Of a stretch of 64,000 bases of DNA, positions 14,218 to 31,732 are shown in pieces. The notes under the pieces are model-generated. The model was not told the DNA's origin. It saw nothing but the letters and a program-made list of their open reading frames with translations, and did not search any database. The stretch comes from Desulfobacterales bacterium (GTDB lineage: Bacteria > Desulfobacterota > Desulfobacteria > Desulfobacterales > UBA5852), in assembly GCA_963674755.2 (NCBI GenBank), contig CAXXVS010000001.1, forward strand, positions 512,001 to 576,000, given 5' to 3'. A program made the translations under genes and the position numbers. Positions within the stretch are counted from its first letter, which is position 1, and the number at the start of each line of letters is the position of its first letter.

Positions 14218-16011
14218 CTAGTCCTCCGGATACATGGTATCGATTTCCGCGGCGAAGCGTCGGGCGATGACCTTGCGGCGGATTTTCTGGGTCGGTGTGA
14301 CTTCCCCCTCCTCTTGGGAAAACTCCCGGGGCAGCAAGGTAAAGGCTTTGATGGTTTCGAAACCGGCCAGTTCGCCGGATTGCTGATCGATGCGCTCCCG
14401 AAAGAAGCGGATGATGTCCGGATGTTTAACCAGTTCTTCCCGGGATCGGAAAGGAATGCCCTTTTCCCGGGCCAGCGTTTCGACGACCTCGAAGGAAGGC
14501 ACGATCAAGGCGCTGACGTATTTGCGGCGGTCGCCGATGGTGGCGATCTGTTCGATATAGTGGTCTTTGCCCACCGCGGTTTCGATGTGCTGGGGCGCAA
14601 TATTTTTCCCGCCCGAGGTGATGATCAGATCCTTGATGCGATCGGTGATGACCAAAAAGCCGTCGCCGTCGATCCGGCCTACATCGCCGGTGCGAAACCA
14701 GCCGTCGTCAAAAGCCGCGGCGGTGGCCTCCGGGTTGTTGTAGTAACCCAGCATGACGTTGGGACCCTTAACCTGGACTTCGTCGTTGGGCCCGATGCGG
14801 ACCCGGCAGCCCGGGACCGGCCGGCCGACCGTACCGAATTTGAAGTGCGGGGGGGTGTTGTAGCTGATCATGGGGGCAGTTTCCGTCAGACCGTAGCCCT
14901 GACAGACCAGCAGGCCCACATCCAGAAAGAAATCTTCGATCTCCTTGGCCAGGGGCGCACCTCCGGCCGAGAAGAAATTTTTATCGCCGCCCACGATGGC
15001 GCGGATCTTGCGCAGCACCAGCCGGTCGGCCAGCCGGTACTTGAAGGCTAGAATGCCTCCGGGCTTTCGATCGGCGCGCCGGGCATCCGCCCGCTGCCGA
15101 CCGATGGCAATCGCCCAGCTAAACAGATGCCGGCGCAGTGGGGGCGCCTTCTCAAGGCGGTCCATGATGGCGGCATGGACTTTTTCATAAAGGCGCGGCA
15201 CGCTGACCATGACGGTCGGTTGGACCTCGCCTAACGCCTGGAGGACCTCGCGGGGGTTTCTAATATAGTGGTTCTGGGCGCCCTGGTGGAAAACGAGATA
15301 GGACCAGCTGCGCTCATAGACATGGCTGAGGGGCAGAAAGCATAGGGAACGGTCCTCCGGGCGCACCTGGAAATGGGCATTCACGGCATCGATCTGGTGG
15401 AAGAAGCTCCCGTGGCTGAGCATCACCCCCTTGGGGTCGCCCGTGGTGCCGGAGGTATAGATGATGCTGGCCAGATGTCGGGACGTGTCGCAGGCCGGCC
15501 GTTCGGCGGGCAGGGTTTCATCCCGGGATGAGGGCGATGACGCCAGCAGGTCGCTGAAGGTTTGGGTGCGGTCCCCGTCTGCCGAAGGGGTGTCCGCTGC
15601 GTCGAAGCGGATGATATGGTCCAGCGGACCGTGGCGGTCGGCGAAAGAAGTTATTTTGGCGTACTGGGTTCCATCGCCCACAAAAAGGACCTTTATGCCG
15701 GCGTCGCGTACGATATATTCGGCCTGGCCGGCCGTATTGGTGGCATAAATCGGCACGGTAACAGCATCCACCGTCAGGATCCCGAAATCGGCGATGGCCC
15801 ATTCCGCGCAGTTCTGGGAAAAGATGCCCACCCGGTCCCCGGCCCTGACGCCCATGGCGGTGAGGGCCGCTGCGATGCGCCGGATCCGCTGGCCGAGTTC
15901 CCCATAGGTGATGGCCTGCCAGGCACCATTCGATTTATAGCGCATGGCCACCCGGTCGGCATGGCGGCGGCAGCTTTGGGCGATCATATCGGCGAGATGG
16001 CGCTGTTCCAT
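14218..16011 (-). CDS. Long-chain fatty acid--CoA ligase (AMP-dependent synthetase)
   Basis: IIYTSGTTGDPKG, QGYGLTET, FRTGD, DRIKDLIITSGGKNIAP and TPTQKIRR motifs (FadD15/LACS-type). Confidence 0.92.
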   Translation of the reverse strand: MEQRHLADMIAQSCRRHADRVAMRYKSNGAWQAITYGELGQRIRRIAAALTAMGVRAGDRVGIFSQNCAEWAIADFGILTVDAVTVPIYATNTAGQAEYIVRDAGIKVLFVGDGTQYAKITSFADRHGPLDHIIRFDAADTPSADGDRTQTFSDLLASSPSSRDETLPAERPACDTSRHLASIIYTSGTTGDPKGVMLSHGSFFHQIDAVNAHFQVRPEDRSLCFLPLSHVYERSWSYLVFHQGAQNHYIRNPREVLQALGEVQPTVMVSVPRLYEKVHAAIMDRLEKAPPLRRHLFSWAIAIGRQRADARRADRKPGGILAFKYRLADRLVLRKIRAIVGGDKNFFSAGGAPLAKEIEDFFLDVGLLVCQGYGLTETAPMISYNTPPHFKFGTVGRPVPGCRVRIGPNDEVQVKGPNVMLGYYNNPEATAAAFDDGWFRTGDVGRIDGDGFLVITDRIKDLIITSGGKNIAPQHIETAVGKDHYIEQIATIGDRRKYVSALIVPSFEVVETLAREKGIPFRSREELVKHPDIIRFFRERIDQQSGELAGFETIKAFTLLPREFSQEEGEVTPTQKIRRKVIARRFAAEIDTMYPED

Positions 16012-16168
16012 GGCCAGTGTCCCCCTGTCGGTGAAAGCTTTTGTAAAGCGTGTCTGTCTTGCAGCCAAAGCCATACCACAGGCCGGGCGGCAGTCCAACA
16101 TCAATTTAAGTGAATACTATACGGTATGGCGGGCCGTCCGATAGACGGATGAAGGCGGCGTGCCGCGG

Positions 16169-16954
16169 TCAGGACACCATGGCGAAGGCGTAACCGGGAA
16201 AAAGCAGATGGGTGGCGAGGGAAAGGGAGGGAACGGGACACCCATCGTGGAAAATGGTGTCGTCCAGGATTTCCACCCGTTTGAGGCTTTCGTGGAACCC
16301 CAGACCGATATACTTGAGGTAGGCTTCCTTGGCGGTCCAAGACCGAAAGAGGGTGGCATCGTCCCGGGATTCGAGGGCTTGGACCTCCCGGGCGCTGAAA
16401 GCGGTGCGCAGGAGCGTTGACCGGTTCTCCGGTCGAATCTGTTCCAGATCCACCCCCAGGAGGCAGGCGGGCGCGAGCCCCATCCCGGCCACGGCAAAGT
16501 TCCCGGAGTGTGAAATGGAAAGACACAGGGCGGGGTCATCGCTGAAATAGGGGGCGCCTTTTTGCCGGTAGGCCACCCGGGTGTGGTCGAGGGGGGGGCG
16601 ATGTGGCCGGAAGTGTGCCGCCAGTTGCTTGGCCGCATAGCGCCCGGCGATCCATTCCACCTGTTTTTTGAGGGCTTTGAAACCATTCAGGAGGATCAAT
16701 TCATCCGACCCCAGGAAACACTCATGGAAATCCTGCGGTACAAAAACGCGCGGCGGCGCCGTGCGAAAGGCGCTTCCGACGGCAACCTTCAAAACGTTGT
16801 GCAATAAAGCGGGGATCGATACGAAGGCCAGGCGGTAACCCGGGCCGGGTCGTCGAAAACTGAGTACGGCGTCAGGTTCCGGCCCTTGGCTAAGGGGGGG
16901 GATGGGTGCGGTCATATGGGTATTCGACATGACCGACGACCGGCCGAGACACAT
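16169..16954 (-). CDS. 4'-phosphopantetheinyl transferase (Sfp-like)
   Basis: KGAPYF, SISHSG, GVDLEQ and WTAKEAYLK motifs; directly downstream of the PKS; start uncertain (16915-16954). Confidence 0.9.
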   Translation of the reverse strand: MCLGRSSVMSNTHMTAPIPPLSQGPEPDAVLSFRRPGPGYRLAFVSIPALLHNVLKVAVGSAFRTAPPRVFVPQDFHECFLGSDELILLNGFKALKKQVEWIAGRYAAKQLAAHFRPHRPPLDHTRVAYRQKGAPYFSDDPALCLSISHSGNFAVAGMGLAPACLLGVDLEQIRPENRSTLLRTAFSAREVQALESRDDATLFRSWTAKEAYLKYIGLGFHESLKRVEILDDTIFHDGCPVPSLSLATHLLFPGYAFAMVS

Positions 16955-16984: not shown

Positions 16985-19900
16985 TTATGAGGCGCGCCGG
17001 GCGCTGCCGGTTTGCAGGGCATGCAATATCTGATCTTCCCCGGCCAGCCGGTCCACCTGGACCATCTGGAAGTCGTCGATGGCCATGTGCAGGCGGCCCG
17101 CTTCATCCACCAGACGAAGCTGGTAGGTATTGGTTTCCTCGCCCTGGTCGGTCTTTTCGGTGATGCACAGATAGGGCCTGCCCTTGGCGAGGGGCCGGTA
17201 GAAGCGCATGCGGCCGATGGCGTATGGCAGAACGATGATATTGGTGGTCATGACCTCGAGCATGCCGCCGGTCTGGAACATGGCATCCACCACGGCCACA
17301 TCGGTCAGAAAATCCGGCTGGGGGCAATCCGCAAAGAAAGGCTTCGTGCTGCGATTGACGATGCGGGAGATCAGCCGTTGGGGTTCGAAAGAGACAATGT
17401 CCTCCACCGTCCGGAAAAGGCCGTCCATGAACAGGCGCGACGGGTGGTAGAGCAGTTCCTGGATGTCACCGGCATAGTCCACGGGCCGAAACGGCGGCAG
17501 CGTGACCTGTTCGGAGGGCAGCGGCGTCGGTCCGAACCGGTAGGCGCCCTGGTAGTGCAGGGTGGGTTCGCCCATGGCGATGCCTTTGGGGTTGCGGAAC
17601 TGGGAACGGATGCGGCAGTCGAAGACCTCGTCATCCTTCTCTGATCGAACGGCTTCCACCAGGATTTCCTTGGGGCGTCCCTTGAGGATCTTAATGCCGT
17701 AGGGGATTTTGAAATCCCGCACTTCCTGTAGGGCGGCCTGCGGCGGGACCAGGGTGGCGGCCGCCTCGGCCATGGCTTCAATGCCGGTGGCGCCTAGGAA
17801 AATCGGGATGTCCTCCCGGCTGTGATCCAGCAGGAAAAGGTCCCGCTGGAGATCCAGAATGCGGCGGTAGATCCGGCTGTCCGCCGTTTGTTCCACAAGG
17901 CGATCGAGGAAGGGCGCCTGGGGGCCGGCCGGGGCAGCATCCTCGGGCGCTAAAAGACCGTCGGTGTCAAAGGCGCGGTCGATGCCGGAGAACACCACTT
18001 CGGAAGTGTTTGTGTCCCCCAGTTCTTGCATGAAATGCGCCACACCGTCTTCCAGGGGCAGGAAGGTCAGCCCCCGCTGCTTGAGGACCTTATTGACGGT
18101 TTCGTTGGTGGCCATGCCGGCGCCCTCCCAGGCGGTCCAATCGAAAATCTTGACCATCGTGTCGGGGTGGAGCGCTTGATAGTGCTGCAGCATTTTTCCG
18201 ATGGTGTCGTTGGCGGCCGTGTAATCCACCTGCCCCTCGTTGCCCAAGCGGGCGGTGACCGACGAAAAGGCCATGAGGTAACGCAGGGGATTTCCTTCCA
18301 GGGCTTTCAGGAGATTATGCAGACCGCGAACCTTGGTGTCGAACACCCGATCAAAGGAGGCCATGGTCTTCTTGGTGATGAACTGGCTTTCTTCGATGCC
18401 CGCGGCATGCAGCACGCCGTCCATTTTCCCGGTCCTTGCCAGGACCGCGTGAACGCTCGCGGCATCGGTGACATCCACGGCATGGTAGGTCACTCCGGCC
18501 CCCGAAGCGCGCAGGGTTTCAAGGTTGCGCAGGGAGGCCCGCAGGTTGAGCGTCCGGTTGAGGGCCTGTTTGACGGCCAGCGGCTTGGCCTCCGGCATCC
18601 GGGTTTTCAGCCGGGCCATGAGGGCCGGGAGGTCCAATGCCGGGTCGGCCAGGTCGGCATCCAGGTCGTCGAGGTTGCTGCGGCCCAGGATCACCAGCTT
18701 CACTTTGACGGCGGCAGTCAGCGCTTTCAGAATTTCAAAAGTGATGCCCCGTGCGCCTCCGGTAACGAGGAAGGTATCGCCCTCGCGAACGAAGCGCTTC
18801 CCCGTGTGCGGTGCCTGGGGGGTGAGCTGCAGGACCCATTTATTGCCGTTGGCGTACCCGCATTCCACCCGCGGATCGCCGGAGAGCAGTTCATCGAGCA
18901 GCGTTGTGACAATGGTCTCCGGAGCCTGCCGGAATTCGCTTTCAGCCAAATCCACGACCTTGACCCGGGTGTCCTTAAGTTCTTTGTTGACCGTCTTCAG
19001 CATGCCGGCCAGGCCGGCCATGAGCGGATCGATGGCCGCGCTGGTTTTCCGGTACGGGAATACGGTCGAGTGCACCGTCGGTACGGCGATAAAGGTCCCC
19101 GGGCGATCGAGCTGGTCATAGAGCCCCCGGATCAGGACGAAGAAGGCTTTCAGACTGCCGGCGATCCGCTGGGGCGCCAGGCGATCGGCCGTGCCGTAGG
19201 TTTCCAGGGGGAGCAGATGGATCACGCCGTCGATGCGTTGGCCGCTATCCAGCAGATGGCCGGGCAGGGCGGAAACCTTTTGGCGATCCTGCCAGTCGCA
19301 GGGGAATTCGACACTGTCGCCTGATCCCACAAGCACGGCATGTCCGCCCCGGGCCGTAATGTGCTCCGCCATCACGGCGGCCAGCTGGCTGCCGCCGGTC
19401 GTGATCAGGACCCGTTGCCCTGTCATTTTATCCGCCGGCCTGCTCGATTCATTGGCAGCCGGCACCGCTTCGATCACCAGACGCTTGACTGCGCTGTCCA
19501 GCGGCACGGCCGCGACAGGTCCGCGAGCGGCGGGTTCGGCCGCCGCCGGCGTCTCGGTTGTGGCTTGGGCTTCAGGGGAACCAGGGAGTTGTTTAGCGAG
19601 ATAATCGCTCAATTTGGCGATGGTGTTAAGATCGCGCAGTTTGAGGTCTTCGGGGACCTCGATGCCGAAGCGCTCGGATACCTTTCCGAAGATTTCCACC
19701 TGTTTGACGGTGTCGATGCCCAGATCGGCTTCCAGGTCGAGGCCGTCTTCGAGCATGTCGGTGGTATAGCCGGTCTGCTCGGCGACGATGGCCTTGACCG
19801 TGGCCTGGACATCACCATCGGCGGATTGCATTTCGACGGCCGGGGTCTGGGGCGCTGTAGCGGCGTTGCCCACCGGTACCTTTTGGGCCAGATAATCGCC

Positions 19901-22900
19901 CAGTTTGGCGATGGTGTTGAGATCGCGCAGTTTGAGGTCTTCGGGGACCTCGAGACCGAAGCGCTCGGAGAGTTTGCCGAAGATTTCCACCTGTTTGACG
20001 GTGTCGATGCCCAGATCGGCTTCCAGGTCGAGCGCGTCTTCGAGCATGTCGGTAGTGTAGCCGGTCTGCTCGGCGACGATGGTCTTGACTGTGGCCTGGA
20101 CGTCGGTGACGGCCGGTGTTTCCGTCGCCGGGGCTTGTTGCTGGGTAGCGGCCGTGCTTTGACCGGGCATTTTTGGGGTCAGATAGTCGCCCAGTTTGGC
20201 GATGGTGTTGAGGTCGCGCAGTTTGAGGTCTTCGGGGACATCGAGGCCGAAGCGCTCGGAGAGTTTGCCGAAGATTTCCACTTGCTTGACGGTGTCGATG
20301 CCCAGATCGGCTTCCAGGTCGAGGCCGTCTTCGAGCATGTCGGTGGTGTAGCCGGTCTGCTCGGCAATGATGGCCTTGACCGCGTCCAACATATTCCCGT
20401 CAGCGGCGACTGGCGCCGGTGCCGCCGCCGGCAATTGGTTCTCGGAAAGCGGTTTGGCCTCTGCCGCAGCGACCGGTTGGGACTTGGGCGGCGTGTCGGT
20501 GACCGGCGAAATGACGGTCGGGTCGATACACAGGGTGTTGTTGATGGTCGTCAGGCGGGGCCGTTTGAGGCCACTGATCTTTTGTAGCCAGGCCTGGTAG
20601 CGCGGATTGTCGGCGGCCCGGTTCTCTTCGATACGGCGGATCATGAGAAAAGCGAAGTGGGATCCGAATCCGGCGGCATAGTGCAGACCGAACTCGAAGG
20701 GCCCCTTGGACGCGTCCCGGCTGAAACGCAGGTCCCGGAACTCCTCCGGAATGTTGCTGAGGTTGGCGATGGGCGGCACCTGGTTGTGCTGAAGGGCCTT
20801 GACCATGACGGCGTCTTCGATGGCGGCGCCCAAAGTATGCCCGGTATAGCCTTTGGTATTGGTGATGGTGATGTCGCGGTAGTGTTCCGGAAAGGTCTTC
20901 TTGAGGGAGGCCACCTCGGCCGAGGCGCTTCCGCCCCGGGCAGGGGTGAAGGTCTCGTGGGACATGAAGACCATCTTGCGGGTGTAGTCGCGGCGATCGA
21001 GATCGTGACGGTGTTCCACCCGGCGCACGAAGCCTTCCATCTCCTCGGTCAGATGGCCGAGGTCGATCTGGGTGGCGTGATAGGCGCTGTTGCCGATATA
21101 GGTGCCCAGGATTTCGGCCTGACCGTTCAAGCCCCGCTCCCGGACCTGGTCTTCGCGTTCCACGATGAGGGAAACGGCGCCGGCGCCTAAAATGGTGCCG
21201 TTGCGGTCGGCGTCAAAGGGTTTGGCGGCCTCGGCCACCACGTTTTTGATGCTGGCGGCTCCGAGGGCCAGAAAGCCGGAAGCGATCCACGGACTTTGGG
21301 TTTCCGAGGTGGAGGCCTCGCCGCCGATCACGACGACCCGGTCGCAGCGTCCGGTGCGGATCCAGTCCTCGGCCACTCCGACGGCCTGGGTGGTGGAGGC
21401 ACAGGCGCCGCTCATGAGCATGTTGGGCCCCTTGGCTTTGATCAGCTGGGCGAAGTGGGCCGATCCCAGAGGCACCACATCGAAGAGCAGGTTGCGCTCG
21501 AACTGGTAGGTGCCGTATTTCTTGCGGCGCTCCTTGATTTTGAAAAACCAGTCGGTGATCTGTTCCTTGATGTCCGCGTCCCGCACGGATTCCATCAGAT
21601 GGTAGTAGATGTTCTCCAGCTCCTTGTAGGGCCGCACGTAGAACTTGTTGTAGTAGTATTTGTTGAGTTGCTCGATCAGGGTTTCAAACCCCGGAAAGAG
21701 AGAGGTCATGATGACGCCCGTGCGCCCCTGGAGCTCCCGCGGCAGGGCATAGCCGGCCGGAATCTGCTGCCCGGTGGAGGTTTGCTTGTGCTGCAGAACC
21801 AGGGGGATATGGGCGTCTTTGAGGGCCTCGATGCCGGCGGCGATGGCCAGGGAGATCGTGATGTCGTAGTCATAGTCCACGCCGTACTCGTTTTTCAGAT
21901 TGAAATAGCCGAGTTTGCCGGCTAGCTGGATCACGTCCTGGGTGTCGGTGATCTTGAGAAAGCGGGCATTGCCGTCGGGCTGCTTGAACACCCGGGTGAT
22001 ATTCATGTCGACAATTTTCTCCTTCTCCTGGGCGGAGAGCGGCTCGATAAAATTGTTGCCGCTGAGAAGCTTGTCGAAGTTGTTGGAATTGAAGACTTTG
22101 TTGCCGGTGCCCGGCAGTCCGATGGCGGTTCCGGCCACGACGGTCTTGCCCGTATAGAAGTTGAAGCGCTCCACCTCCTTGAGGGCCTGCTCCCGCTTCT
22201 GCTTCAGAAACTCCTGGTAGAGTACGCCCCGCAGGGCCTCTTCATTCTTCTGAAGAAAGGCTTCGAAGTCCGGGGCTTCCGCCAGGGCGGGTGGGCTGAC
22301 AACCTCCTCCGGCAGGTGGTCCGGGGAGGCCTGTGACGCCGCTTCGGCGGCATCTGTTCTTGCGATCAAGCCTTCTGCTGCCAGATGTGCTTTGAATTCC
22401 GCGAACGATTTGGTTTCACCGGCCTTGGCATCCACCGACGGCCGGGCATGGTAGTCTTCGATGCGGATATTCTTCAGTAGGTTGACCAGAATGCGGCCAG
22501 CGCCGATTTCGTAAAACCGAGCGTGGCCGGACTGGCGCACCCGCTCCACCGAGCGGATGAATTCCACCGGCGAGACGATCTGGCGCACCAGCAGGGCTTT
22601 GATCTCCTCGGTCTCTTCCGGATAGGGCGCAGCCGTCACGTTGGAGATAATCCGGCTGGTGTCCACCGGCCGGAAGGTGACGTCCCGCAGGTAGGCGGCC
22701 ATGCTGTCCGCCGCGCTTTGGAAGAGCGGCGTGTGGAAGGCGCCGGAAAGGGCCAGGGCCTTGAACATGACCTTGACTTCCTTGAGGTAGCCTCCGAAGG
22801 CTTCGATGGCCTCCTGGGCGCCCGAGACGGCGGTCTGGTTGTCGCTGTTCTTGTTGGCCACATAGATGTTGCGGATGCGGGAGGCCCGGATCAGCTGGTG

Positions 22901-25900
22901 GACGCGGTCGGCATTCTTGAAGACCACCATGATGCGGCCCGGCTGAACCTCGGTGGCCGCCTTCATGAAGTCGGCCCGTTTGACGATCAGCTGCATGGCG
23001 GCTTCGAAATTCAGCAGGCCGGCGCAGTACAGGGCGGTGTATTCGCCCACGCTGTGGCCGATAAAGCGGTCCGGTGCAAAGCCCCGGGCGGCCAGATCCG
23101 TATAGATGGCCGCCGAGCTCAAAAAGACCGCCGGCTGGGTGTTTTCGGTCAGGTTCAAACGGGCATCTTTGCCGAACATGATATCCAGCAGGCTGTAGCC
23201 GCGCATCTCCTGGAAGATCCGGTTGCCCTGGTCCAGGGTGGCCCGGATGGAGCGGTTTTCATGGTAGAGATCCTGCAGCATGCCGCCATACTGGGCCCCC
23301 TGGCCGGACACAAGCGCCACCACGCCGTTAGGTTTCGTGGGGATGGCGGCTGCGGGGCGGCGTGTCACCGCCGCGGTGGCTGTTACGGCCGGTTGGACGT
23401 CCGTTTGCAGCCAGGGCGGCAGGGTGCCGACTACGGTGTGGCCGTGGTTGCCGCCCACCCCGTTGACATTGGCGGCGAAGTAGAGGGTCTGCCGATTTTC
23501 CGGCTGTCGCAGGCGGGCGTTGGGCGCGAGACATGAATCGGAGCCCACAATGGCGGTATCGGGTGCGTAGCTGAAGTTGGGCAGCAGGGTTTGGGCACGG
23601 TTCATGAGGAGCAGCTTGGCAAGGGCGACGGCCGGGTTGGCGGATTTGAAATAGCCGAACTCCGGCTTGATGTTGCCGAAATAGACCGGCCGGTCAAAGG
23701 TGCGCTCGATGGCCTGCTTCTCCATCTGATCAAGCAGGCTGTTGGCCACGCCGAAGACGTCCAGGTGATCGATCTGGCGGGTGTTGACCGGCAGGCGGCG
23801 ATAGCTGTCCCGGATGGTGTCCCGATAGACTTTTTCGGACGGGGCCAGAAGATGGTCCGGCACGGAAGAACGGAAGGCGCTGTGGAGGAACTCGCCGATC
23901 ACAGGCATGCGGTGCTTTTTGGCATGGCCGTAGGTGGTCATGACCAGCAGGGCCGCGCCTTCGCTCATAACATAGCCCTTGGCCTGCTTGTCGAAGAAAC
24001 GGCAGTCTCCGTCGGACAGCAGGCTCAGGCGTTTGAAGGCCAGCATCACGGTGGGGTAGAAATTGGCGTCCACTCCGCCGGTTAGCACGCTGTCGAACTC
24101 CCCGCTGCGCAGGCCCATGGCCGCCAGCCGGGTGGCCACGGTGGCCGACGCACAGGAGGCGTCCACCACGAAATTGGCCCCGTTACAGCCGAAGGTGTTG
24201 GCAATGCGTCCGGAAACGATGTTGGACAGCAGACCGGGGATCGTGTCCTCGTTATTTTCAGGAATGCGGTCCCGGATTTGCTCCCCCAGACGGGCGGCGA
24301 TGGCTTTTTTGGTTTTCTCCGCGGTGCCTGCCAGGCGGTTGATGATGCCTTCGATCATCCCCAGGCGGACCCGCAGGATGTTCTGCACCTGGCGCTCCCC
24401 CGGCAGGGTCCCCAGCACCACCCCCACCCGGTTGCCGTGGGCCAGCTGGGATTCCAGGGTGGCGGCGTCGATGGCCTGCCGGGCGGCATCCAGGGCGAAG
24501 AGCTGGGCCCGGTCCAGGGAACGGGCCGTGGCCGGCGGGATGCGGAATTGCACGTTGTTGAAGCGGTAGTCCTTCACCACCCCGGCTTTGACGAGGGGGA
24601 TGTGGTAGCTGGCGTCGGCCGGCTCGGCGGCATAGGCGCTGTTATGAAAGCGTTCTTCCGGGATGGTGGACAGCACCGATCGGCCTTCGGTCAGGTTGTG
24701 CCAGAAGGTATCCACGTCCGGCGATTCCGGCAGTACGACGCCCATACCGGCAAAAACGATGCGGTCGTCGTTGAAGTCGTAGTCCAGGTCGGCAAAGATG
24801 CGGCGCGGCCGGCAGGTGTGTTCGGGAGTGTGCTCGGCCACCACGCAGTGGTAGTTGATGCCGCCGAAGCCGTAGGAGCTCACGGCCGCCATGCGCGGGC
24901 GGCCGGCGTCGGCCTCCCACTCCCGGGCCTCCTCGATGATATAGAGCGGGGTGTCCCTAAGGCTGTGGGCCGGGGCCAGCGTTTCGAAGCGGCCGTTGGG
25001 GGGCAGGGTGTGATGGTTGATGGCCAGAATGGCCTTGATCATGCCGGCATAGCCGGCGCCGCCCAGCAGATGGCCGATCTGGGATTTGATGGAGCTGATG
25101 CCGATGGGGTGCTCGCTCCGGTAGATTTTCTTGAGCGTTTCGATTTCGGCCTGGTCGCCGGCGATGGTCGATGTCCCATGGGCTTCGATATACCCGATGT
25201 CGGAAACCGTCACCGGATCGCGCATGTCCGCAAAGCAGCGTTCCAGCGCCAAGGCTTGCCCGTCGGGGTTGGGGGCGGCGATGGCTTTGCCTTTGCCGTC
25301 CGAGCTGGATCCGATGCCTTTCACCACGGCATAAATCTTGTCTCCGTCCCGCAGGGCGTCTTTCAAGCGTTTGAGGACCACCACGCCGGCGCCTTCCCCC
25401 AGGACGAACCCGTCGGCCCGGGTATCGAAGGGGTAGGAACCTTTGGCCGAAAGGGCTCCCATCTTGGAAAATCCCACGAAGGATTCCGGGGCCAGGTTGG
25501 TGTTGACCCCGCCGGAAATCACCAGGTCGTATTCGCCGCTGAGCAATTCCTTGACAGCACAGTCCAAGGCGGCAAAGGAAGTCGCGCAGGCTGCGTCCAC
25601 CACATAGTTGATGCCCGTGATGCCCAAATGGTGGGCGATGCGGGAGGCTTCGATATTGAGCAACTGGCCGTGCACGGGTTCGTAGTCCATCCCGTTGGCC
25701 ATGCCCTCGCGCAGGGTCGTGAGCAGCGCTTCGCGTTCGTCTTCCGCCAGGGTGTTGAATTCCTCGATCTGCTCCAGGTGATGACGTACTTCGGGATACC
25801 AGTATTTCAGGTGCAGATCGTTGCCCAGTTCGTTGCCCAGGCAGGTGGCCACAATGACGGCCGTGGAGGCCTGGTAGGCCGCATCCAGACTCAAATCCTC

Positions 25901-28300
25901 TTGCAGATAACCGGCGTCGGCCACGGCCCGGTAGGCCGCTTCCAGAACCATTTGCTGACTGCGGGAAAGGCGGGTTGCCTTGTCGGCGGTGTAGCCGTAG
26001 CGGTCGTGGTCGAAATGGAAATCCCGCACCACGCCGGCGATCTTAGTGTAGCTCTTGTCGGTGGCCTTGCGATTCTCGTCGAAATAGAGGGCCGGATCCA
26101 GACGGTCAGCCGGCATTTCACCGATGGCGTAGGCTTTGGCAATGACATTTTCCCAGAGTTGTTCCGGGCTGTCGGCCCCCGGGTAAATGCAGCCCATGCC
26201 GATTACGGCGACGTCGTCTTCAATGGCATGGCGTGGGCTGGTGAGAACTTCAAGCGCGTTGAGCTGCCGGAAGAGATCTTCCTTGCGGTGGAAGAAGGTC
26301 TTGTGGATATCTTCGATGGTGGTGCTGCAAGGGTTGAAGGCCAACCCATCCCCCACCATGAAGTTGCCCTTTTCGAATTGTTCCTTTTCATCGTAATGGA
26401 GAAAGCAGACGTCGCCGCTTGCTTTGTCAAACTTCGGGCAAAAGGCCTTGGCGCCGATCAGCAGGGATCCGATATTGTCTTTTTCAAAGGCTTTCTTGCG
26501 CTCCTCCAGGGAGAGCCCCTCCCGTATGCGCTGGTGCTCGTTTTCGATCATGCGCTGGGAGAAGGGGGTCGCCACCGTGCGGGAGGCCAACCCCACCGTG
26601 GTCCCCATGACGATGGTTTCATCCCGCTCGCAGACCACGTCCTGGTAGATTTTTTTGATGGCGCCGGTTTCGATGATTTCGCAGGAGAAAAGATAGGCCG
26701 TACCCACCTGAATGCCGATCTTGACGCCCCGGCCGGCCAAGCGGGCGGTCATGCCGGAAATGAAGTGGGGCGCCCGGTGGGTGCCGATCCCACCGGCGAA
26801 GATCATGGTTTTGTCCCCCAGCTGGCCGTCCGGCAGCGCGCTCATTTTCTCCATGGCGAGCTCCCACAGCACCAGGCTGCTCAAGGTGCCCACGTGGCCG
26901 CCGGCCTCGGCGCCTTCGAAGATAAACCGCCGGCAGCCTTTCTGCAGGGCGTTTTCGAGCATCATCAGGCTGGGGGTGTGGAGATAGGTCTTGGTTCCGG
27001 CCGCTTCCAGATCCTTCACCTGGGAGGGAATCCCCCCGGCGAAAAGGGCAAAGGGCGCGTTGTATTTCTTTACGGAATCCAGGTGGTGGCTGATGGTGGG
27101 GTTGAAGGCTTCGATGCCGATCATGCCGGCCCCGAAGCGCTCCACCTTGGCTTGGCCGGCGGCCAGCATGTCGTCGGCCAGATTGGCCGGCAGGTTGCCC
27201 AGGGCGAAAAAGGGCAGGCCGCCGGCGGCGAAGACCGCGGCGGCGAAATCGGCATTGTCGCTCACATTGGCCATGGGGCCCTGGATGATGGGGTAGCGCG
27301 TGCCGTGCTCCCGGGCCAGGGCGCTCTCCGCCCGCATGGGGTCATGGGCGTCGACGGCCTGCAGCTGTTCGCCGATATGGGTGAAGAGGCCCGTTATCAT
27401 GGCGGCCAGGGTGGCGCTGTGGCGGGCGAAGTGCCGTGCAAAGACCGCGTCCTGACCCAGGTAGAAGAGACTTTGCAGGGGCGTGTCGCTGGGCGTGCCC
27501 AGATCGGCCATGTTTGCTTCGATGTCGTGGTAGAGCAGGGCATCGGCATCTTCCCCGCCGGCCAGCTGGATTTCCCGATCCCGCAGGGTCTTGACGATGC
27601 GGGTGCCCAGCTTGGCGAAGAAATGGTAGCGGACCTGGAGGGATTGACCGATGATGGTGGCATCCTTTTCCTCCAACTGGCCGATGACATCCTTGTATAC
27701 CGGGGCCAGGGGGGCTTCTTGGGCCAGGAAGAGCTGGTTGTCCAGGACGATGCCTTCCGCGCCCATGGCGAACAGGCCGGCGGCCGTATGCCAGCCCACA
27801 CCGCCGTGGACGAATACGGGCCACTCGCCGTTGTTGAGGTACCACTGCAGCAGGACAAAGGACGAATAGCGGGAAACCTTGCCCGGTCCTTCATGGCCTT
27901 TGACGATCAGGCCGTGGGGGTCGATGCGCGTCAGCGAATCCTTCAGGTTGATGTCGGTGGTTTCGATGAAGAACCGATAATCGCGGTTGTCGAACCGGAA
28001 TCCATCCAGATCGGCGGGGGTGCGATAGGTGAAAACGATCAGGTCCAGGTTGGCGATGCTGTTGGTTTCCAGATAGTCACGCAGGGCCTGGTTATCGACG
28101 GCCAGACGCAGGCCGAAGATCAGCTCGTTTTGGGAGAGGGTTTCGACCATTTGGATGATATCGGTATTGGTGAAAAACTCCGTGTCCAGCATCGGCAGGG
28201 CGCCGGCCGTATGGAGGCTTCGGAAATAAGTGAGGTCGAATACCTTCGATGGATGATAAACCAACAGGGGCAAACGGGCACTGATACGTCTCGCGATCAT
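16985..28300 (-). CDS. Single-chain type I FAS/PKS, PUFA-synthase (Pfa)-like, 3771 aa: FabK/PfaD-like ER x2, KS, degenerate KS, AT, KS, ACP x3, KR, DH
   Basis: ER (YPIIQGPMANV, EGAEAGGHVG); KS1 DAACATS/EAHGTST/IGHLLGG; KS2 DASCAS lacking both His; AT GQGAQ/GHSVG/SGAFH; KS3 GACAST/SHETFT/TGHTLGA; 3 ACPs; KR TGGARGIT/YTAAN; DH DH...FLG/DAMFQ. Confidence 0.93.
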   Translation of the reverse strand: MIARRISARLPLLVYHPSKVFDLTYFRSLHTAGALPMLDTEFFTNTDIIQMVETLSQNELIFGLRLAVDNQALRDYLETNSIANLDLIVFTYRTPADLDGFRFDNRDYRFFIETTDINLKDSLTRIDPHGLIVKGHEGPGKVSRYSSFVLLQWYLNNGEWPVFVHGGVGWHTAAGLFAMGAEGIVLDNQLFLAQEAPLAPVYKDVIGQLEEKDATIIGQSLQVRYHFFAKLGTRIVKTLRDREIQLAGGEDADALLYHDIEANMADLGTPSDTPLQSLFYLGQDAVFARHFARHSATLAAMITGLFTHIGEQLQAVDAHDPMRAESALAREHGTRYPIIQGPMANVSDNADFAAAVFAAGGLPFFALGNLPANLADDMLAAGQAKVERFGAGMIGIEAFNPTISHHLDSVKKYNAPFALFAGGIPSQVKDLEAAGTKTYLHTPSLMMLENALQKGCRRFIFEGAEAGGHVGTLSSLVLWELAMEKMSALPDGQLGDKTMIFAGGIGTHRAPHFISGMTARLAGRGVKIGIQVGTAYLFSCEIIETGAIKKIYQDVVCERDETIVMGTTVGLASRTVATPFSQRMIENEHQRIREGLSLEERKKAFEKDNIGSLLIGAKAFCPKFDKASGDVCFLHYDEKEQFEKGNFMVGDGLAFNPCSTTIEDIHKTFFHRKEDLFRQLNALEVLTSPRHAIEDDVAVIGMGCIYPGADSPEQLWENVIAKAYAIGEMPADRLDPALYFDENRKATDKSYTKIAGVVRDFHFDHDRYGYTADKATRLSRSQQMVLEAAYRAVADAGYLQEDLSLDAAYQASTAVIVATCLGNELGNDLHLKYWYPEVRHHLEQIEEFNTLAEDEREALLTTLREGMANGMDYEPVHGQLLNIEASRIAHHLGITGINYVVDAACATSFAALDCAVKELLSGEYDLVISGGVNTNLAPESFVGFSKMGALSAKGSYPFDTRADGFVLGEGAGVVVLKRLKDALRDGDKIYAVVKGIGSSSDGKGKAIAAPNPDGQALALERCFADMRDPVTVSDIGYIEAHGTSTIAGDQAEIETLKKIYRSEHPIGISSIKSQIGHLLGGAGYAGMIKAILAINHHTLPPNGRFETLAPAHSLRDTPLYIIEEAREWEADAGRPRMAAVSSYGFGGINYHCVVAEHTPEHTCRPRRIFADLDYDFNDDRIVFAGMGVVLPESPDVDTFWHNLTEGRSVLSTIPEERFHNSAYAAEPADASYHIPLVKAGVVKDYRFNNVQFRIPPATARSLDRAQLFALDAARQAIDAATLESQLAHGNRVGVVLGTLPGERQVQNILRVRLGMIEGIINRLAGTAEKTKKAIAARLGEQIRDRIPENNEDTIPGLLSNIVSGRIANTFGCNGANFVVDASCASATVATRLAAMGLRSGEFDSVLTGGVDANFYPTVMLAFKRLSLLSDGDCRFFDKQAKGYVMSEGAALLVMTTYGHAKKHRMPVIGEFLHSAFRSSVPDHLLAPSEKVYRDTIRDSYRRLPVNTRQIDHLDVFGVANSLLDQMEKQAIERTFDRPVYFGNIKPEFGYFKSANPAVALAKLLLMNRAQTLLPNFSYAPDTAIVGSDSCLAPNARLRQPENRQTLYFAANVNGVGGNHGHTVVGTLPPWLQTDVQPAVTATAAVTRRPAAAIPTKPNGVVALVSGQGAQYGGMLQDLYHENRSIRATLDQGNRIFQEMRGYSLLDIMFGKDARLNLTENTQPAVFLSSAAIYTDLAARGFAPDRFIGHSVGEYTALYCAGLLNFEAAMQLIVKRADFMKAATEVQPGRIMVVFKNADRVHQLIRASRIRNIYVANKNSDNQTAVSGAQEAIEAFGGYLKEVKVMFKALALSGAFHTPLFQSAADSMAAYLRDVTFRPVDTSRIISNVTAAPYPEETEEIKALLVRQIVSPVEFIRSVERVRQSGHARFYEIGAGRILVNLLKNIRIEDYHARPSVDAKAGETKSFAEFKAHLAAEGLIARTDAAEAASQASPDHLPEEVVSPPALAEAPDFEAFLQKNEEALRGVLYQEFLKQKREQALKEVERFNFYTGKTVVAGTAIGLPGTGNKVFNSNNFDKLLSGNNFIEPLSAQEKEKIVDMNITRVFKQPDGNARFLKITDTQDVIQLAGKLGYFNLKNEYGVDYDYDITISLAIAAGIEALKDAHIPLVLQHKQTSTGQQIPAGYALPRELQGRTGVIMTSLFPGFETLIEQLNKYYYNKFYVRPYKELENIYYHLMESVRDADIKEQITDWFFKIKERRKKYGTYQFERNLLFDVVPLGSAHFAQLIKAKGPNMLMSGACASTTQAVGVAEDWIRTGRCDRVVVIGGEASTSETQSPWIASGFLALGAASIKNVVAEAAKPFDADRNGTILGAGAVSLIVEREDQVRERGLNGQAEILGTYIGNSAYHATQIDLGHLTEEMEGFVRRVEHRHDLDRRDYTRKMVFMSHETFTPARGGSASAEVASLKKTFPEHYRDITITNTKGYTGHTLGAAIEDAVMVKALQHNQVPPIANLSNIPEEFRDLRFSRDASKGPFEFGLHYAAGFGSHFAFLMIRRIEENRAADNPRYQAWLQKISGLKRPRLTTINNTLCIDPTVISPVTDTPPKSQPVAAAEAKPLSENQLPAAAPAPVAADGNMLDAVKAIIAEQTGYTTDMLEDGLDLEADLGIDTVKQVEIFGKLSERFGLDVPEDLKLRDLNTIAKLGDYLTPKMPGQSTAATQQQAPATETPAVTDVQATVKTIVAEQTGYTTDMLEDALDLEADLGIDTVKQVEIFGKLSERFGLEVPEDLKLRDLNTIAKLGDYLAQKVPVGNAATAPQTPAVEMQSADGDVQATVKAIVAEQTGYTTDMLEDGLDLEADLGIDTVKQVEIFGKVSERFGIEVPEDLKLRDLNTIAKLSDYLAKQLPGSPEAQATTETPAAAEPAARGPVAAVPLDSAVKRLVIEAVPAANESSRPADKMTGQRVLITTGGSQLAAVMAEHITARGGHAVLVGSGDSVEFPCDWQDRQKVSALPGHLLDSGQRIDGVIHLLPLETYGTADRLAPQRIAGSLKAFFVLIRGLYDQLDRPGTFIAVPTVHSTVFPYRKTSAAIDPLMAGLAGMLKTVNKELKDTRVKVVDLAESEFRQAPETIVTTLLDELLSGDPRVECGYANGNKWVLQLTPQAPHTGKRFVREGDTFLVTGGARGITFEILKALTAAVKVKLVILGRSNLDDLDADLADPALDLPALMARLKTRMPEAKPLAVKQALNRTLNLRASLRNLETLRASGAGVTYHAVDVTDAASVHAVLARTGKMDGVLHAAGIEESQFITKKTMASFDRVFDTKVRGLHNLLKALEGNPLRYLMAFSSVTARLGNEGQVDYTAANDTIGKMLQHYQALHPDTMVKIFDWTAWEGAGMATNETVNKVLKQRGLTFLPLEDGVAHFMQELGDTNTSEVVFSGIDRAFDTDGLLAPEDAAPAGPQAPFLDRLVEQTADSRIYRRILDLQRDLFLLDHSREDIPIFLGATGIEAMAEAAATLVPPQAALQEVRDFKIPYGIKILKGRPKEILVEAVRSEKDDEVFDCRIRSQFRNPKGIAMGEPTLHYQGAYRFGPTPLPSEQVTLPPFRPVDYAGDIQELLYHPSRLFMDGLFRTVEDIVSFEPQRLISRIVNRSTKPFFADCPQPDFLTDVAVVDAMFQTGGMLEVMTTNIIVLPYAIGRMRFYRPLAKGRPYLCITEKTDQGEETNTYQLRLVDEAGRLHMAIDDFQMVQVDRLAGEDQILHALQTGSARRAS
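19595..20390 (-). repeat. Three tandem ACP-coding repeats, 291-bp period
   Basis: Near-identical AEQTGYTTDMLED(G/A)LDLEADLGIDTVKQVEIFGK...DLKLRDLNTIAKL units; Thr codons at 20291-20293, 20000-20002 and 19709-19711. Confidence 0.95.
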
Positions 28301-29895: not shown

Positions 29896-30933
29896 ATGAA
29901 CTCATCGGTCATTCGTGCTCGGCAAAATCTTTCCGTCGATATCGAGGCCTTGACCCGCCTGATTCTCGACCAGCAGCGTGCGAGCGGTGAAATTCCCTGG
30001 TGCGACGGGCAGAAAACCGATCCCTGGGATCATGTGGAATCCGCGATCGGATTGACCATCGGCGGCCATTACGAAGCCGCCCGGCGGGCCTACGAGTGGA
30101 TGCGCCGGACCCAGCTGGATGACGGCAGCTGGTATGCCGCCTATCGTGACGGCCGGCCGGAGGACCGCACCCGGGACGCCAATCTTTCCACCTATATCGC
30201 GGTGGGGATCTATCATTATCTTCTCGTCACCGGTGACCGGGCGTTTGCGGAAGCCCTCTGGCCGACGGTGCGTGACGCCATTGAATTCGCCCTGAAGCTG
30301 CAAACCCCGGAAGGCCCGATCCACTGGGCCATCAGCCCCGAGGGCCGGGTGGACGCCATGGCCTTGCGGACCGGGTCGAGTTCGGTGTTCATGAGCCTCA
30401 AATGCGCGCTCAAACTGGCCGAGCTCCTGGGCCGCCCACGGCCCCGCTGGGTTGACGCCCTCGGTCGCCTCCAGGACGCGTTGTGCCGCAAGCCCCATCT
30501 TTTCAACATGACCAAATCGCGTTTTTCCATGGACTGGTTCTACCCGGTTCTCTGCGGTGCCCTGCAGGGTGACGATGCCCGCCGGCGCATCGACAAATAC
30601 TGGAAGAAGTTCGTCGTGGAAGGCCAGGGGGTGCGCTGTGTCTACGATGAGCCCTGGATTACCGTCGCCGAAACCTGCGAACTCGTCCTGTCTTTGGCGG
30701 CCATGGGCAACGAGGCGCTGGCCCGGATCGTCTTCGGCTGGATCAGCACCAAGCGCTTCGAAGACGATACCTACTGGTGCGGCTTTACCTTTCCGGATAT
30801 GGTGATCTGGCCGGAAGACAAGATTAGCTGGACCAATGCCGTCGTCCTCATGGCGCTGGATGCCCTCTATCACCTGACCCCCGCCAGCCAGTTGTTCCAT
30901 CACGCCAGCTGGGATGACCGCGCTCCGGTCTGA
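29896..30933 (+). CDS. (alpha/alpha)-barrel protein, prenyltransferase/squalene-cyclase-repeat-like; function unknown
   Basis: QW-like repeats (QQRASGEIPW, QLDDGSW, QTPEGPIHW); DPWDHVE, MDWFYP and WITVAETCE motifs. Confidence 0.65.
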   Translation: MNSSVIRARQNLSVDIEALTRLILDQQRASGEIPWCDGQKTDPWDHVESAIGLTIGGHYEAARRAYEWMRRTQLDDGSWYAAYRDGRPEDRTRDANLSTYIAVGIYHYLLVTGDRAFAEALWPTVRDAIEFALKLQTPEGPIHWAISPEGRVDAMALRTGSSSVFMSLKCALKLAELLGRPRPRWVDALGRLQDALCRKPHLFNMTKSRFSMDWFYPVLCGALQGDDARRRIDKYWKKFVVEGQGVRCVYDEPWITVAETCELVLSLAAMGNEALARIVFGWISTKRFEDDTYWCGFTFPDMVIWPEDKISWTNAVVLMALDALYHLTPASQLFHHASWDDRAPV

Positions 30934-31012
30934 CCGGAGCGCAGCATCCCGGGGCCATTCCCAGACGCTCAAGGGGCGATGTGCGGCGGTCCCTTGCGCG
31001 GGAGGATCCGGA

Positions 31013-31732
31013 TTGCGACGCGACCACCGTCCCTATAGCGTCAAGAAATTATTCCTGAACTGGCAGCGCTTTTATGTACGGCGTTTCCTGCGGCCCCAAT
31101 TCGATGCCCTGGGCCGCGGCCACCATTTCATGCGCCCCTGGTATGTGGAGCTGTTCGGGGCGCCCATCGCGTTGGGGCGCTATGCCACCGTGATTGCCTG
31201 CGCGGATGCCCGGGTGCGCCTCTGTGTCTGGCCCCGGCAGGACGGCGAAGGCCTGATCCGGATCGGAGATTACAGCCTGATCTGCCCGGGCGTGCGCATC
31301 AGTTCCGCCTGTCGCATCACGGTGGGGCACAGCGTCATGCTGGCCAACCGGGTCTACCTGACCGATTCGGACTGGCATGATGTCTATGACCGTACGGCCG
31401 CCGGGCAGGGCGCGCCCATCGCGATCGGCGACAACGTCTGGATCGGGGACAGCGCCATCGTCTGCAAGGGGGTTGCCATCGGTGACAACAGTATTGTCGG
31501 GGCCGGAGCGGTGGTGGTGGATGACGTGCCGCCCAATGTGGTCGCGGCCGGCAATCCAGCCCGGGTGGTCAAGATGCTCGATCCGCAGCGTCCGCTCAAG
31601 GCCCGCCGCGATTGGTTTGCCGATCCGGCCCGTTTGTCACGGGATTTCCGGATCTGGGACCGCGCCCTGCTGGAAGGCAATACCCTGGCCCACTGGCTGC
31701 GCTATCTGGTGCGGCCCAGCCAGCAGGATTAG
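31013..31732 (+). CDS. Hexapeptide-repeat (left-handed beta-helix) acyltransferase
   Basis: IGDNVWIG...KGVAIGDNSIVGAGAVV...AGNPARVV motif; TTG start after GGAGGA gives MRRDHRPY. Confidence 0.85.
   Translation: MRRDHRPYSVKKLFLNWQRFYVRRFLRPQFDALGRGHHFMRPWYVELFGAPIALGRYATVIACADARVRLCVWPRQDGEGLIRIGDYSLICPGVRISSACRITVGHSVMLANRVYLTDSDWHDVYDRTAAGQGAPIAIGDNVWIGDSAIVCKGVAIGDNSIVGAGAVVVDDVPPNVVAAGNPARVVKMLDPQRPLKARRDWFADPARLSRDFRIWDRALLEGNTLAHWLRYLVRPSQQD

Follow-up and report, generated by a model that had tools for sequence, protein, structure and literature searches.

A Type S megasynthase with threonine at the carrier site of its three tandem acyl carrier proteins, a probable 4′-phosphopantetheine site

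The window, a 64,000-nt stretch of DNA from a Desulfobacterales bacterium, encodes a Pfa-like megasynthase of Type S. Each of its three acyl carrier protein (ACP) domains was found to carry threonine at the carrier site, a position at which serine is treated as invariant and its change to threonine is used as a null mutation. The gene is most probably an active single-chain iterative fatty-acyl synthase, Type S/R, whose tandem ACPs would use threonine as the 4′-phosphopantetheine site. Based on conservation and genome context, threonine is likely the modified residue. The domain order, obtained by Pfam and alignment, is enoyl reductase (ER), ketosynthase KS1, KS2 (His-less), acyltransferase (AT), KS3, three threonine ACPs, ketoreductase (KR) and dehydratase (DH). 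No thioesterase domain was found in the 3,771-residue chain. Coordinates below are window positions and synthase residues are numbered along this chain.

16985..28300, (-) strand: Type S Pfa-like megasynthase, 3,771 residues (open reading frame and Pfam scan)
26528..27301, (-) strand: FabK/PfaD-like ER, residues 334-591, His469 kept (Pfam and alignment)
24806..26218, (-) strand: KS1, Cys905/His1041/His1077 (Pfam and alignment)
23381..24763, approximate bounds, (-) strand: KS2, Cys1383 kept, both His replaced, chain-length-factor-like (alignment)
22463..23311, (-) strand: malonyl-type AT, Ser1750/Arg1775/His1856 (Pfam and alignment)
20501..22108, (-) strand: KS3, the family-marking ketosynthase, Cys2300/His2448/His2488 (KS3 search and alignment)
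20156..20395, (-) strand: ACP1, Thr2670, codon ACC at 20293-20291 (motif, alignment and structure model)
19865..20104, (-) strand: ACP2, Thr2767, codon ACC at 20002-20000 (motif and Pfam)
19574..19813, (-) strand: ACP3, Thr2864, codon ACC at 19711-19709 (motif and Pfam)
18125..18775, (-) strand: KR, Ser3347/Tyr3360 (Pfam and alignment)
16988..17893, start approximate, (-) strand: polyketide synthase-type DH, His3493/Asp3672 (Pfam and alignment)
16169..16954, (-) strand: Sfp/EntD-type phosphopantetheinyl transferase (PPTase), 261 residues (Pfam and alignment)

An earlier note on this DNA had reported threonine in all three ACPs, intact KS, AT, KR and DH catalytic residues, a PPTase immediately downstream and no other carrier in the operon. 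The ACC codons were confirmed, each inside the 16-residue ACP motif. The catalytic residues are present in ER, KS1, KS3, AT, KR and DH, the exception being KS2, where Phe/Tyr occupy the two His positions and the Cys is retained. The PPTase (16169-16954, (-) strand) begins 31 bases downstream of the synthase, and Pfam gives three PP-binding domains and none else in the window.

The three ACP copies share 85-88% DNA identity with one another over 80 codons. Their threonine aligned with the serine of solved ACPs in all four alignments shown, and helix II (H35-49) begins with it in an AlphaFold model (predicted local distance difference test, pLDDT, 90.5). The model superposes on known ACPs at a template modelling (TM) score of about 0.8 and has the four-helix ACP fold; the conserved serine expected at the start of helix II is replaced by threonine in 3/3 window copies. 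A helix-capping role for the threonine was considered and is disfavoured, threonine being the first helical residue and Asp or Asn never substituting for it.

In order to place this residue in a wider context, homologs were collected with the ACP region, for which 120 of 4,360 matches were listed. Threonine was present in 112 of these 120. Among their 565 ACP domains, 510 carry Thr, 54 Ser and one Asn; 49 of the serines belong to eight PfaA-type proteins and the other five are single copies amid Thr copies. Tandem amplification reached up to eight ACP copies in these listed homologs. KS3 was also searched against 50%-cluster representatives, chosen to avoid selecting on the ACP, and the best 150 were kept. 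Of these, 21 had no ACP, two had no readable site and 127 were readable: 110 all-Thr, 11 Thr with a degenerate copy, three Thr with Ser and three all-Ser, so that 124 of the 127 bear threonine. The motif copies with intact flanks (126 proteins) contained Thr 345 times, Ser eight times and no other residue. Gln occupies position +3 from the site in 810 of 812 Thr copies versus 3 of 12 Ser copies, a candidate co-adaptation on the ACP side.

A pattern scan of GTDB gave at least 122 loci, 80 of them titled. The bacterial phyla among the matches listed include Desulfobacterota, Acidobacteriota, Chloroflexota, Actinomycetota, Elusimicrobiota and Myxococcota, besides others, and the archaeal groups are Poseidoniales and Heimdallarchaeia, including one closed chromosome. 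All four Thr codons were encountered (ACC 148, ACG 135, ACT 24, ACA 19), in loci preselected by the Thr pattern. The use of four codons across loci, together with the 112/120 count, rules out both chance and a sequencing error; the earlier note had considered a single such error unlikely. Its guess that the motif marks a whole family is likewise upheld by the listed homologs, the GTDB loci and the KS3-selected representatives. The note had also allowed for a strain-specific change with serine in the orthologs and for a different serine as the modified site. It was found that the orthologs carry threonine, and no conserved Ser column exists in the ACP of the best 150 KS3-selected representatives (highest 34%), and an alternative serine site is rejected on that ground. 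In a FastTree analysis of KS3 (135 family sequences and seven PfaA outgroups, 326 columns), whose deep nodes and root are weak, the Ser forms are nested inside Thr clades at at least five places. Therefore, threonine looks ancestral, and serine would be a rare reversion.

Two variants of the array were observed. A degenerate, motif-less ACP-like copy stands beside the Thr ACPs, often at an array end (first or last), in P0147, P0159, P0167, P0168, P0198, P0208, P0213, P0215, P0223, P0237 and P0249. Rearranged members with Thr ACPs on both sides of KS3, all with a fused PPTase, are P0205, P0207, P0214, P0232, P0239, P0251, P0254, P0259 and P0263.

The catalytic residues were counted in the 124 Thr-bearing KS3-selected representatives wherever the position aligned. 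KS3 has Cys, His and His in 124/124 each. KS1 Cys (95/95), AT Ser (102/102), KR Tyr (92/92), DH His (50/50) and ER His (20/20) were equally constant, and in 48/49 the acidic DH residue is either Glu or Asp. The KS, AT, KR, DH and ER domains act on phosphopantetheine thioesters. Judged by these residues, the Thr-ACP synthases look alive.

The window PPTase contains the G-x-D-x-E and W/F-x-x-K-E-x-x-x-K motifs and the CoA-binding His; its residues His149, Asp169, Glu171, Lys209, Glu210 and Lys214 align with conserved residues of Sfp and of the human PPTase. It also carries the hShxH (P1b′) motif by which Type S is recognised. Linkage is widespread: 39 of the best 150 KS3-selected representatives have a fused PPTase, 31 of these having Thr-only ACPs, and of the 62 loci whose downstream flank extended at least 5 kb, 56 have one inside the flank, a count from which two chance matches (L058 and L077) and one duplicate (L011) among the 80 titled loci were left out. 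In 107 linked copies, the Asp/Glu/Lys-Glu/Lys residues show 97-100% conservation. The fusion of a PPTase to a chain with Thr-only carriers is hard to explain unless threonine is the substrate of that PPTase. In the host's order, 251 genomes of at least 90% completeness were screened, 76 of which have the Thr motif, 63 in tandem. A profile was made of 30 linked PPTases from other lineages; with a threshold (E<=1e-24) picked after seeing the data, it matched in 46 of the 63 tandem-Thr genomes versus 9 of 175 motif-less ones; in one of these nine (G165) a synthase cut by the contig end adjoins the PPTase.

Regarding specificity, a second, different PPTase was found in four of five closed genomes. 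In G159 the sole PPTase found is of the Thr-linked type, although Ser-type Pfa ACPs are present, and therefore this type must be capable of acting on serine. The linked PPTase likeliest accepts both residues, because some chains combine Ser and Thr ACPs with a single fused PPTase (P0042, P0082 and P0151). The two positions before W-x-x-K-E are both aromatic in 6/6 unlinked second PPTases, in Sfp and in the human enzyme, and in 0/103 Thr-linked copies. This non-aromatic pair may reflect ancestry rather than Thr use, because the all-Ser revertant P0176 retains it. The earlier note had proposed a co-evolved PPTase; this stands insofar as the enzyme is linked or fused and forms a recognisable group, and fails insofar as an invariant Thr-specific residue is concerned. 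The chances that the PPTase is needed specifically for threonine are judged to be even. An ACP-PPTase complex prediction gave a score of 0.08 for a non-cognate pair (Elusimicrobia PPTase alignment and window ACP), a result that favours neither side. At L010:3251-7946, a frame of nonribosomal peptide synthetase size, accompanied by an Sfp-type PPTase, is found immediately 5′ of a Thr synthase with a second PPTase, and two PPTases thus flank that locus.

In the proposed mechanism, the linked or fused PPTase would move phosphopantetheine from CoA onto the Thr hydroxyl and would probably accept Ser too. The AT would load malonyl from malonyl-CoA, which an acetyl-CoA carboxylase encoded next to the synthase would supply in many relatives, and KS1 and KS3 would prime and extend. 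KR, DH and ER would fully reduce the chain, an adjacent acyl-CoA dehydrogenase-family protein presumably acting where ER is absent. The acyl chains would go to membrane lipids, and the enzyme would be the main fatty acid synthase where FabD, FabF or FabZ is lost. ApbE flavinylates a Thr of NqrB/C and RnfG by Mg-dependent transfer from a nucleotide pyrophosphate; enzyme and cofactor are unrelated to the PPTase. By this analogy, a Mg-dependent transfer to Thr appears chemically feasible.

Several observations weigh against a modified threonine. In the available text of PMC3340395, the S36T variant of Escherichia coli ACP is described as non-modifiable and non-functional. The window's genome (G000) has eight Ser-type carriers outside the window, including five stand-alone Ser ACPs and a Ser-type Pfa cluster, and also FabF, FabZ and a second PPTase, making a carrier in trans possible. 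An invariant Thr-specific residue was not found in the comparison of linked PPTases. Accordingly, the Thr domains might remain in the apo form and serve as repeats for docking or structure, while a Ser ACP in trans carries the chain and is the substrate of the linked PPTase. This explanation would agree with the null S36T variant, with the stand-alone Ser ACPs in the window's genome and most relatives and with the one PPTase type of G159, which must handle Ser. It is nevertheless improbable in view of genomes in which no other carrier was found. PP-binding matches were counted in 50 Thr genomes and ten low-count genomes were read closely: the Thr synthase holds every above-cut-off carrier in G001, G032 and G036 (Poseidoniales), G040 (Heimdallarchaeia), G046 (archaeon) and G029 (actinomycete). 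A linked or fused PPTase accompanies the synthase in all five archaea, and G029 has none within the flank; all six are metagenome-assembled genomes without reported completeness, which tempers the argument. Of the other four, G011 has one extra, marginal partial carrier match, stand-alone carriers are present in G007 and G044, and the array of G015 is Ser-Thr-Ser. Moreover, intact motifs contain only Thr or Ser and never Ala, Val, Asp or Asn, the two residues alternate in one chain (Ser-Thr-Ser, L017/P0151), and tandem arrays reach eight ACP copies.

The need for a hydroxyl fits any O-linked chemistry, and the near-invariant Gln(+3), rare beside Ser, indicates a changed local surface; the threonine might thus bear an acyl group in direct O-ester linkage or some other prosthetic group. 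However, its partner is a PPTase with intact catalytic residues, and the KS, AT, KR and DH active sites, being of the thioester type, require a long arm, which leaves this reading very unlikely. A dead synthase, inactivated in one strain or lineage through gene conversion, would be consistent with homogenisation of the three copies at 85-88% DNA identity, but it is already refuted and keeps next to no credit: threonine is fixed across many bacterial and archaeal phyla with four codons and invariant catalytic residues, and in 49/49 genomes of family f7. Equally negligible is that Thr codons are read as Ser by mistranslation or recoding, leaving a fraction of the ACPs ordinary. It would keep the serine rule and has no direct support, while the four Thr codons all occur across unrelated phyla and one base change, which happens but rarely, would restore Ser. 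Phosphopantetheinylation of the threonine thus remains the preferred reading.

As to the role of the product, a FabD-like gene (E<1e-70, a limit that a few large-synthase ATs may pass) was found in 6 of the 63 tandem-Thr genomes of the host's order versus 151 of the 188 others. The Ser-type Pfa motif, present in 193 of the 251, does not track FabD loss (105/133 vs 46/55). Family f7 has the Thr motif in 49/49 genomes; its five closed genomes have ATs only in megasynthases, and its eleven near-closed ones have FabZ in 0/11 and FabF above the cut-off in 0/11. Across the 50 Thr genomes, the synthase AT is the sole malonyl-transferase-like match at E<=1e-40 in 15. Based on this, a main role in fatty acid synthesis in lineages deficient in the type II fatty acid synthase (FAS II) is slightly favoured. 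Other counts limit that role. In the order, 45 of the 63 tandem-Thr genomes belong to one family and are non-independent, with eight of nine families mostly or wholly lacking FabD; family f23 keeps FabD (4/4), two tested f23 genomes having no FabF or FabZ at the cut-off; 60 of the 63 also have the Ser-type Pfa motif, and four closed f7 genomes have a PfaD and PfaA-like cluster, a possible fatty acid source. FabD above the cut-off is kept in 18 of the 50 Thr genomes across phyla and FabD is also absent from 37 of the 188 genomes without tandem Thr, therefore the main role is not universal; it plausibly holds in some lineages, not all.

It is also possible, with a probability appreciably below even, that the threonine is modified and the product is a specialised lipid instead of bulk fatty acids, a reading that concerns the product only and is compatible with the Thr claim. 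The coexisting FabD (18/50), the two or three KS domains without a thioesterase, the FabF and FabZ kept in the window's genome and the Ser-type Pfa system, usually present as another acyl source, would suit such a product. The strong link to FabD loss, lacking for the Ser-type Pfa system, the sole AT in 15/50 and the acetyl-CoA carboxylase genes adjoining the synthase argue instead for bulk synthesis.

Neither a stand-alone FabD nor an AcpS-sized PPTase match was found in the window's genome. That genome and families f1, f6, f19, f29 and f38 keep FabF and FabZ, and no FabD-like gene was found in them. Its separate Ser-type cluster (G000:C2:832403-857959) has the order pfaD-pfaA-pfaBC followed by ole-like genes, and no PPTase adjoins it. 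In one metatranscriptome, contigs of a relative cover most of the gene at about 87-90% identity, library DNA contamination being possible; contigs of three other runs closely match the window, and their listed pieces break at the ACP repeats.

Among the archaea, L017:1042-16287 (= P0151), on a closed Heimdallarchaeum chromosome, is a split synthase with Ser-Thr-Ser ACPs and a fused PPTase; the PPTase region recurs, nearly identical, 2 kb downstream. L001, L013, L046, L052, L056, L069 and L071 contain full ACP-dependent synthases and a PPTase; two of these seven loci have an upstream carboxyltransferase. The seven loci bear on how archaea make fatty acids.

A scan of 30 frames, either neighbours or synthases, showed many of them to encode acetyl-CoA carboxylase chains or subunits. 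Single-chain eukaryote-like carboxylases of about 1,750-1,970 residues, several with an ACC_central domain, lie 3′ of the synthase and usually 5′ of the PPTase (L004:1539-7211, L006:13657-19569, L044:13093-18843, L053:13881-19520 and L043:2185-7395). Four frames 5′ of ER-less synthases are acyl-CoA dehydrogenase-family proteins (L004:16089-17813, L006:3302-5023, L053:3173-4924 and L009:15649-17364). This gene, of about 570 residues and directly 5′ of synthases without a fused ER, is a candidate substitute enoyl reductase.

Downstream in the window, a ligase-like gene shares the strand of the synthase and PPTase, and it was also found 3′ of the PPTase in two close relatives (L045 and L174).

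14218..16104, (-) strand: long-chain acyl-CoA ligase-like gene, probable start near 16011 (scan)
14101-14074: terminator-like hairpin after the ligase-like gene

The first ~320 synthase residues (27350-28300, (-) strand) have no Pfam match, and the L071 equivalent matches the nitronate monooxygenase/ER family; they are possibly a second, degenerate ER barrel. Upstream, a 345-residue frame (29896-30933, (+) strand) has a prenyltransferase/six-hairpin look judged by eye, and a hexapeptide acyltransferase (30914-31732, (+) strand) comes next.

No report of Thr phosphopantetheinylation or of the Thr motif was found in the open-access literature, subscription journals being outside the search. In their available text, PMC6619796, PMC12551638 and PMC11744666 describe only Ser at the carrier site and PMC13343975 uses S36T ACP as a control. 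Since this variant is a standard null in E. coli, a natural Thr modification would be surprising. The synthase type appears to be already known by name only and the Thr carrier to be unreported; an earlier description somewhere is unlikely, though a real prospect. The broadest reading is put forward tentatively, at a little under even chances: Thr phosphopantetheinylation would be an undescribed natural modification made by a distinct PPTase group, defining an old, cross-domain single-chain synthase family that took the place of FAS II in several lineages of bacteria and gave Poseidoniales and Heimdallarchaeia an ACP-dependent fatty acid route. If true, a natural Thr carrier family breaks the invariant-Ser rule, annotation rules calling Thr ACPs inactive need correction, and an orthogonal Thr-ACP/PPTase pair becomes possible for labelling and synthase engineering. 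The synthase is also a candidate fatty acid route for sulfate reducers deficient in FAS II, as well as for some marine and Asgard archaea.

The closest known system is the Type S synthase of Desulfobacterium (Desulforapulum) autotrophicum HRM2 (P0103), which is 51% identical to the window protein over 3,878 columns, full length. Both have the same domain set, a place in the same well-nested part of the KS3 tree and a linked PPTase, and the three HRM2 ACPs are all Thr as well. In the available text of Shulse & Allen 2011 (PMC3098273), Type S is one uncharacterised representative and possibly a core fatty acid synthase, as fabA/fabZ are missing; 'threonine' and 'serine' have 0 occurrences in the main text. 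The HRM2 host has no fabA/fabZ whereas the window's genome has FabZ and FabF and no stand-alone FabD, a trait of the host and not of the synthase. Compared by sequence, Type S is here a large, Thr-defined family. Type R (Acidobacteria, Elusimicrobia and Chloroflexi) is described in the same text as KS-MAT-CLF-ACP(3-6)-KR (MAT, malonyl acyltransferase; CLF, chain-length factor) with a downstream PPTase and sometimes an acetyl-CoA carboxylase gene between. Loci of the same phyla and layout carry Thr ACPs, the comparison being via those loci and not the five named genomes. The domain called CLF in Type R appears to be KS3, with invariant Cys/His/His. Type R lacks a fused ER, while the window protein has one and a third KS, a sister architecture.

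The PfaA polyunsaturated fatty acid synthases share with the window synthase the KS/MAT/KR homology and tandem ACPs with the same flanking motif. Their ACPs read Ser-Ile-Lys-Arg in 8/8, whereas those of the window have Thr. The window synthase scores 948.5 against TIGR02813 (PfaA), below the cut-off of 1010.1, and differs in being one chain with ER, extra KSs and a polyketide synthase-type DH; the FabA-type DH (PF07977) had no match at the window locus and is present in the separate Ser-type cluster on C2. The fungal and mycobacterial type I fatty acid synthases also run the whole reductive cycle in one chain, without a thioesterase and with a fused or dedicated PPTase, on a Ser ACP. The window synthase would resemble them in function only, as domain order and ancestry differ.

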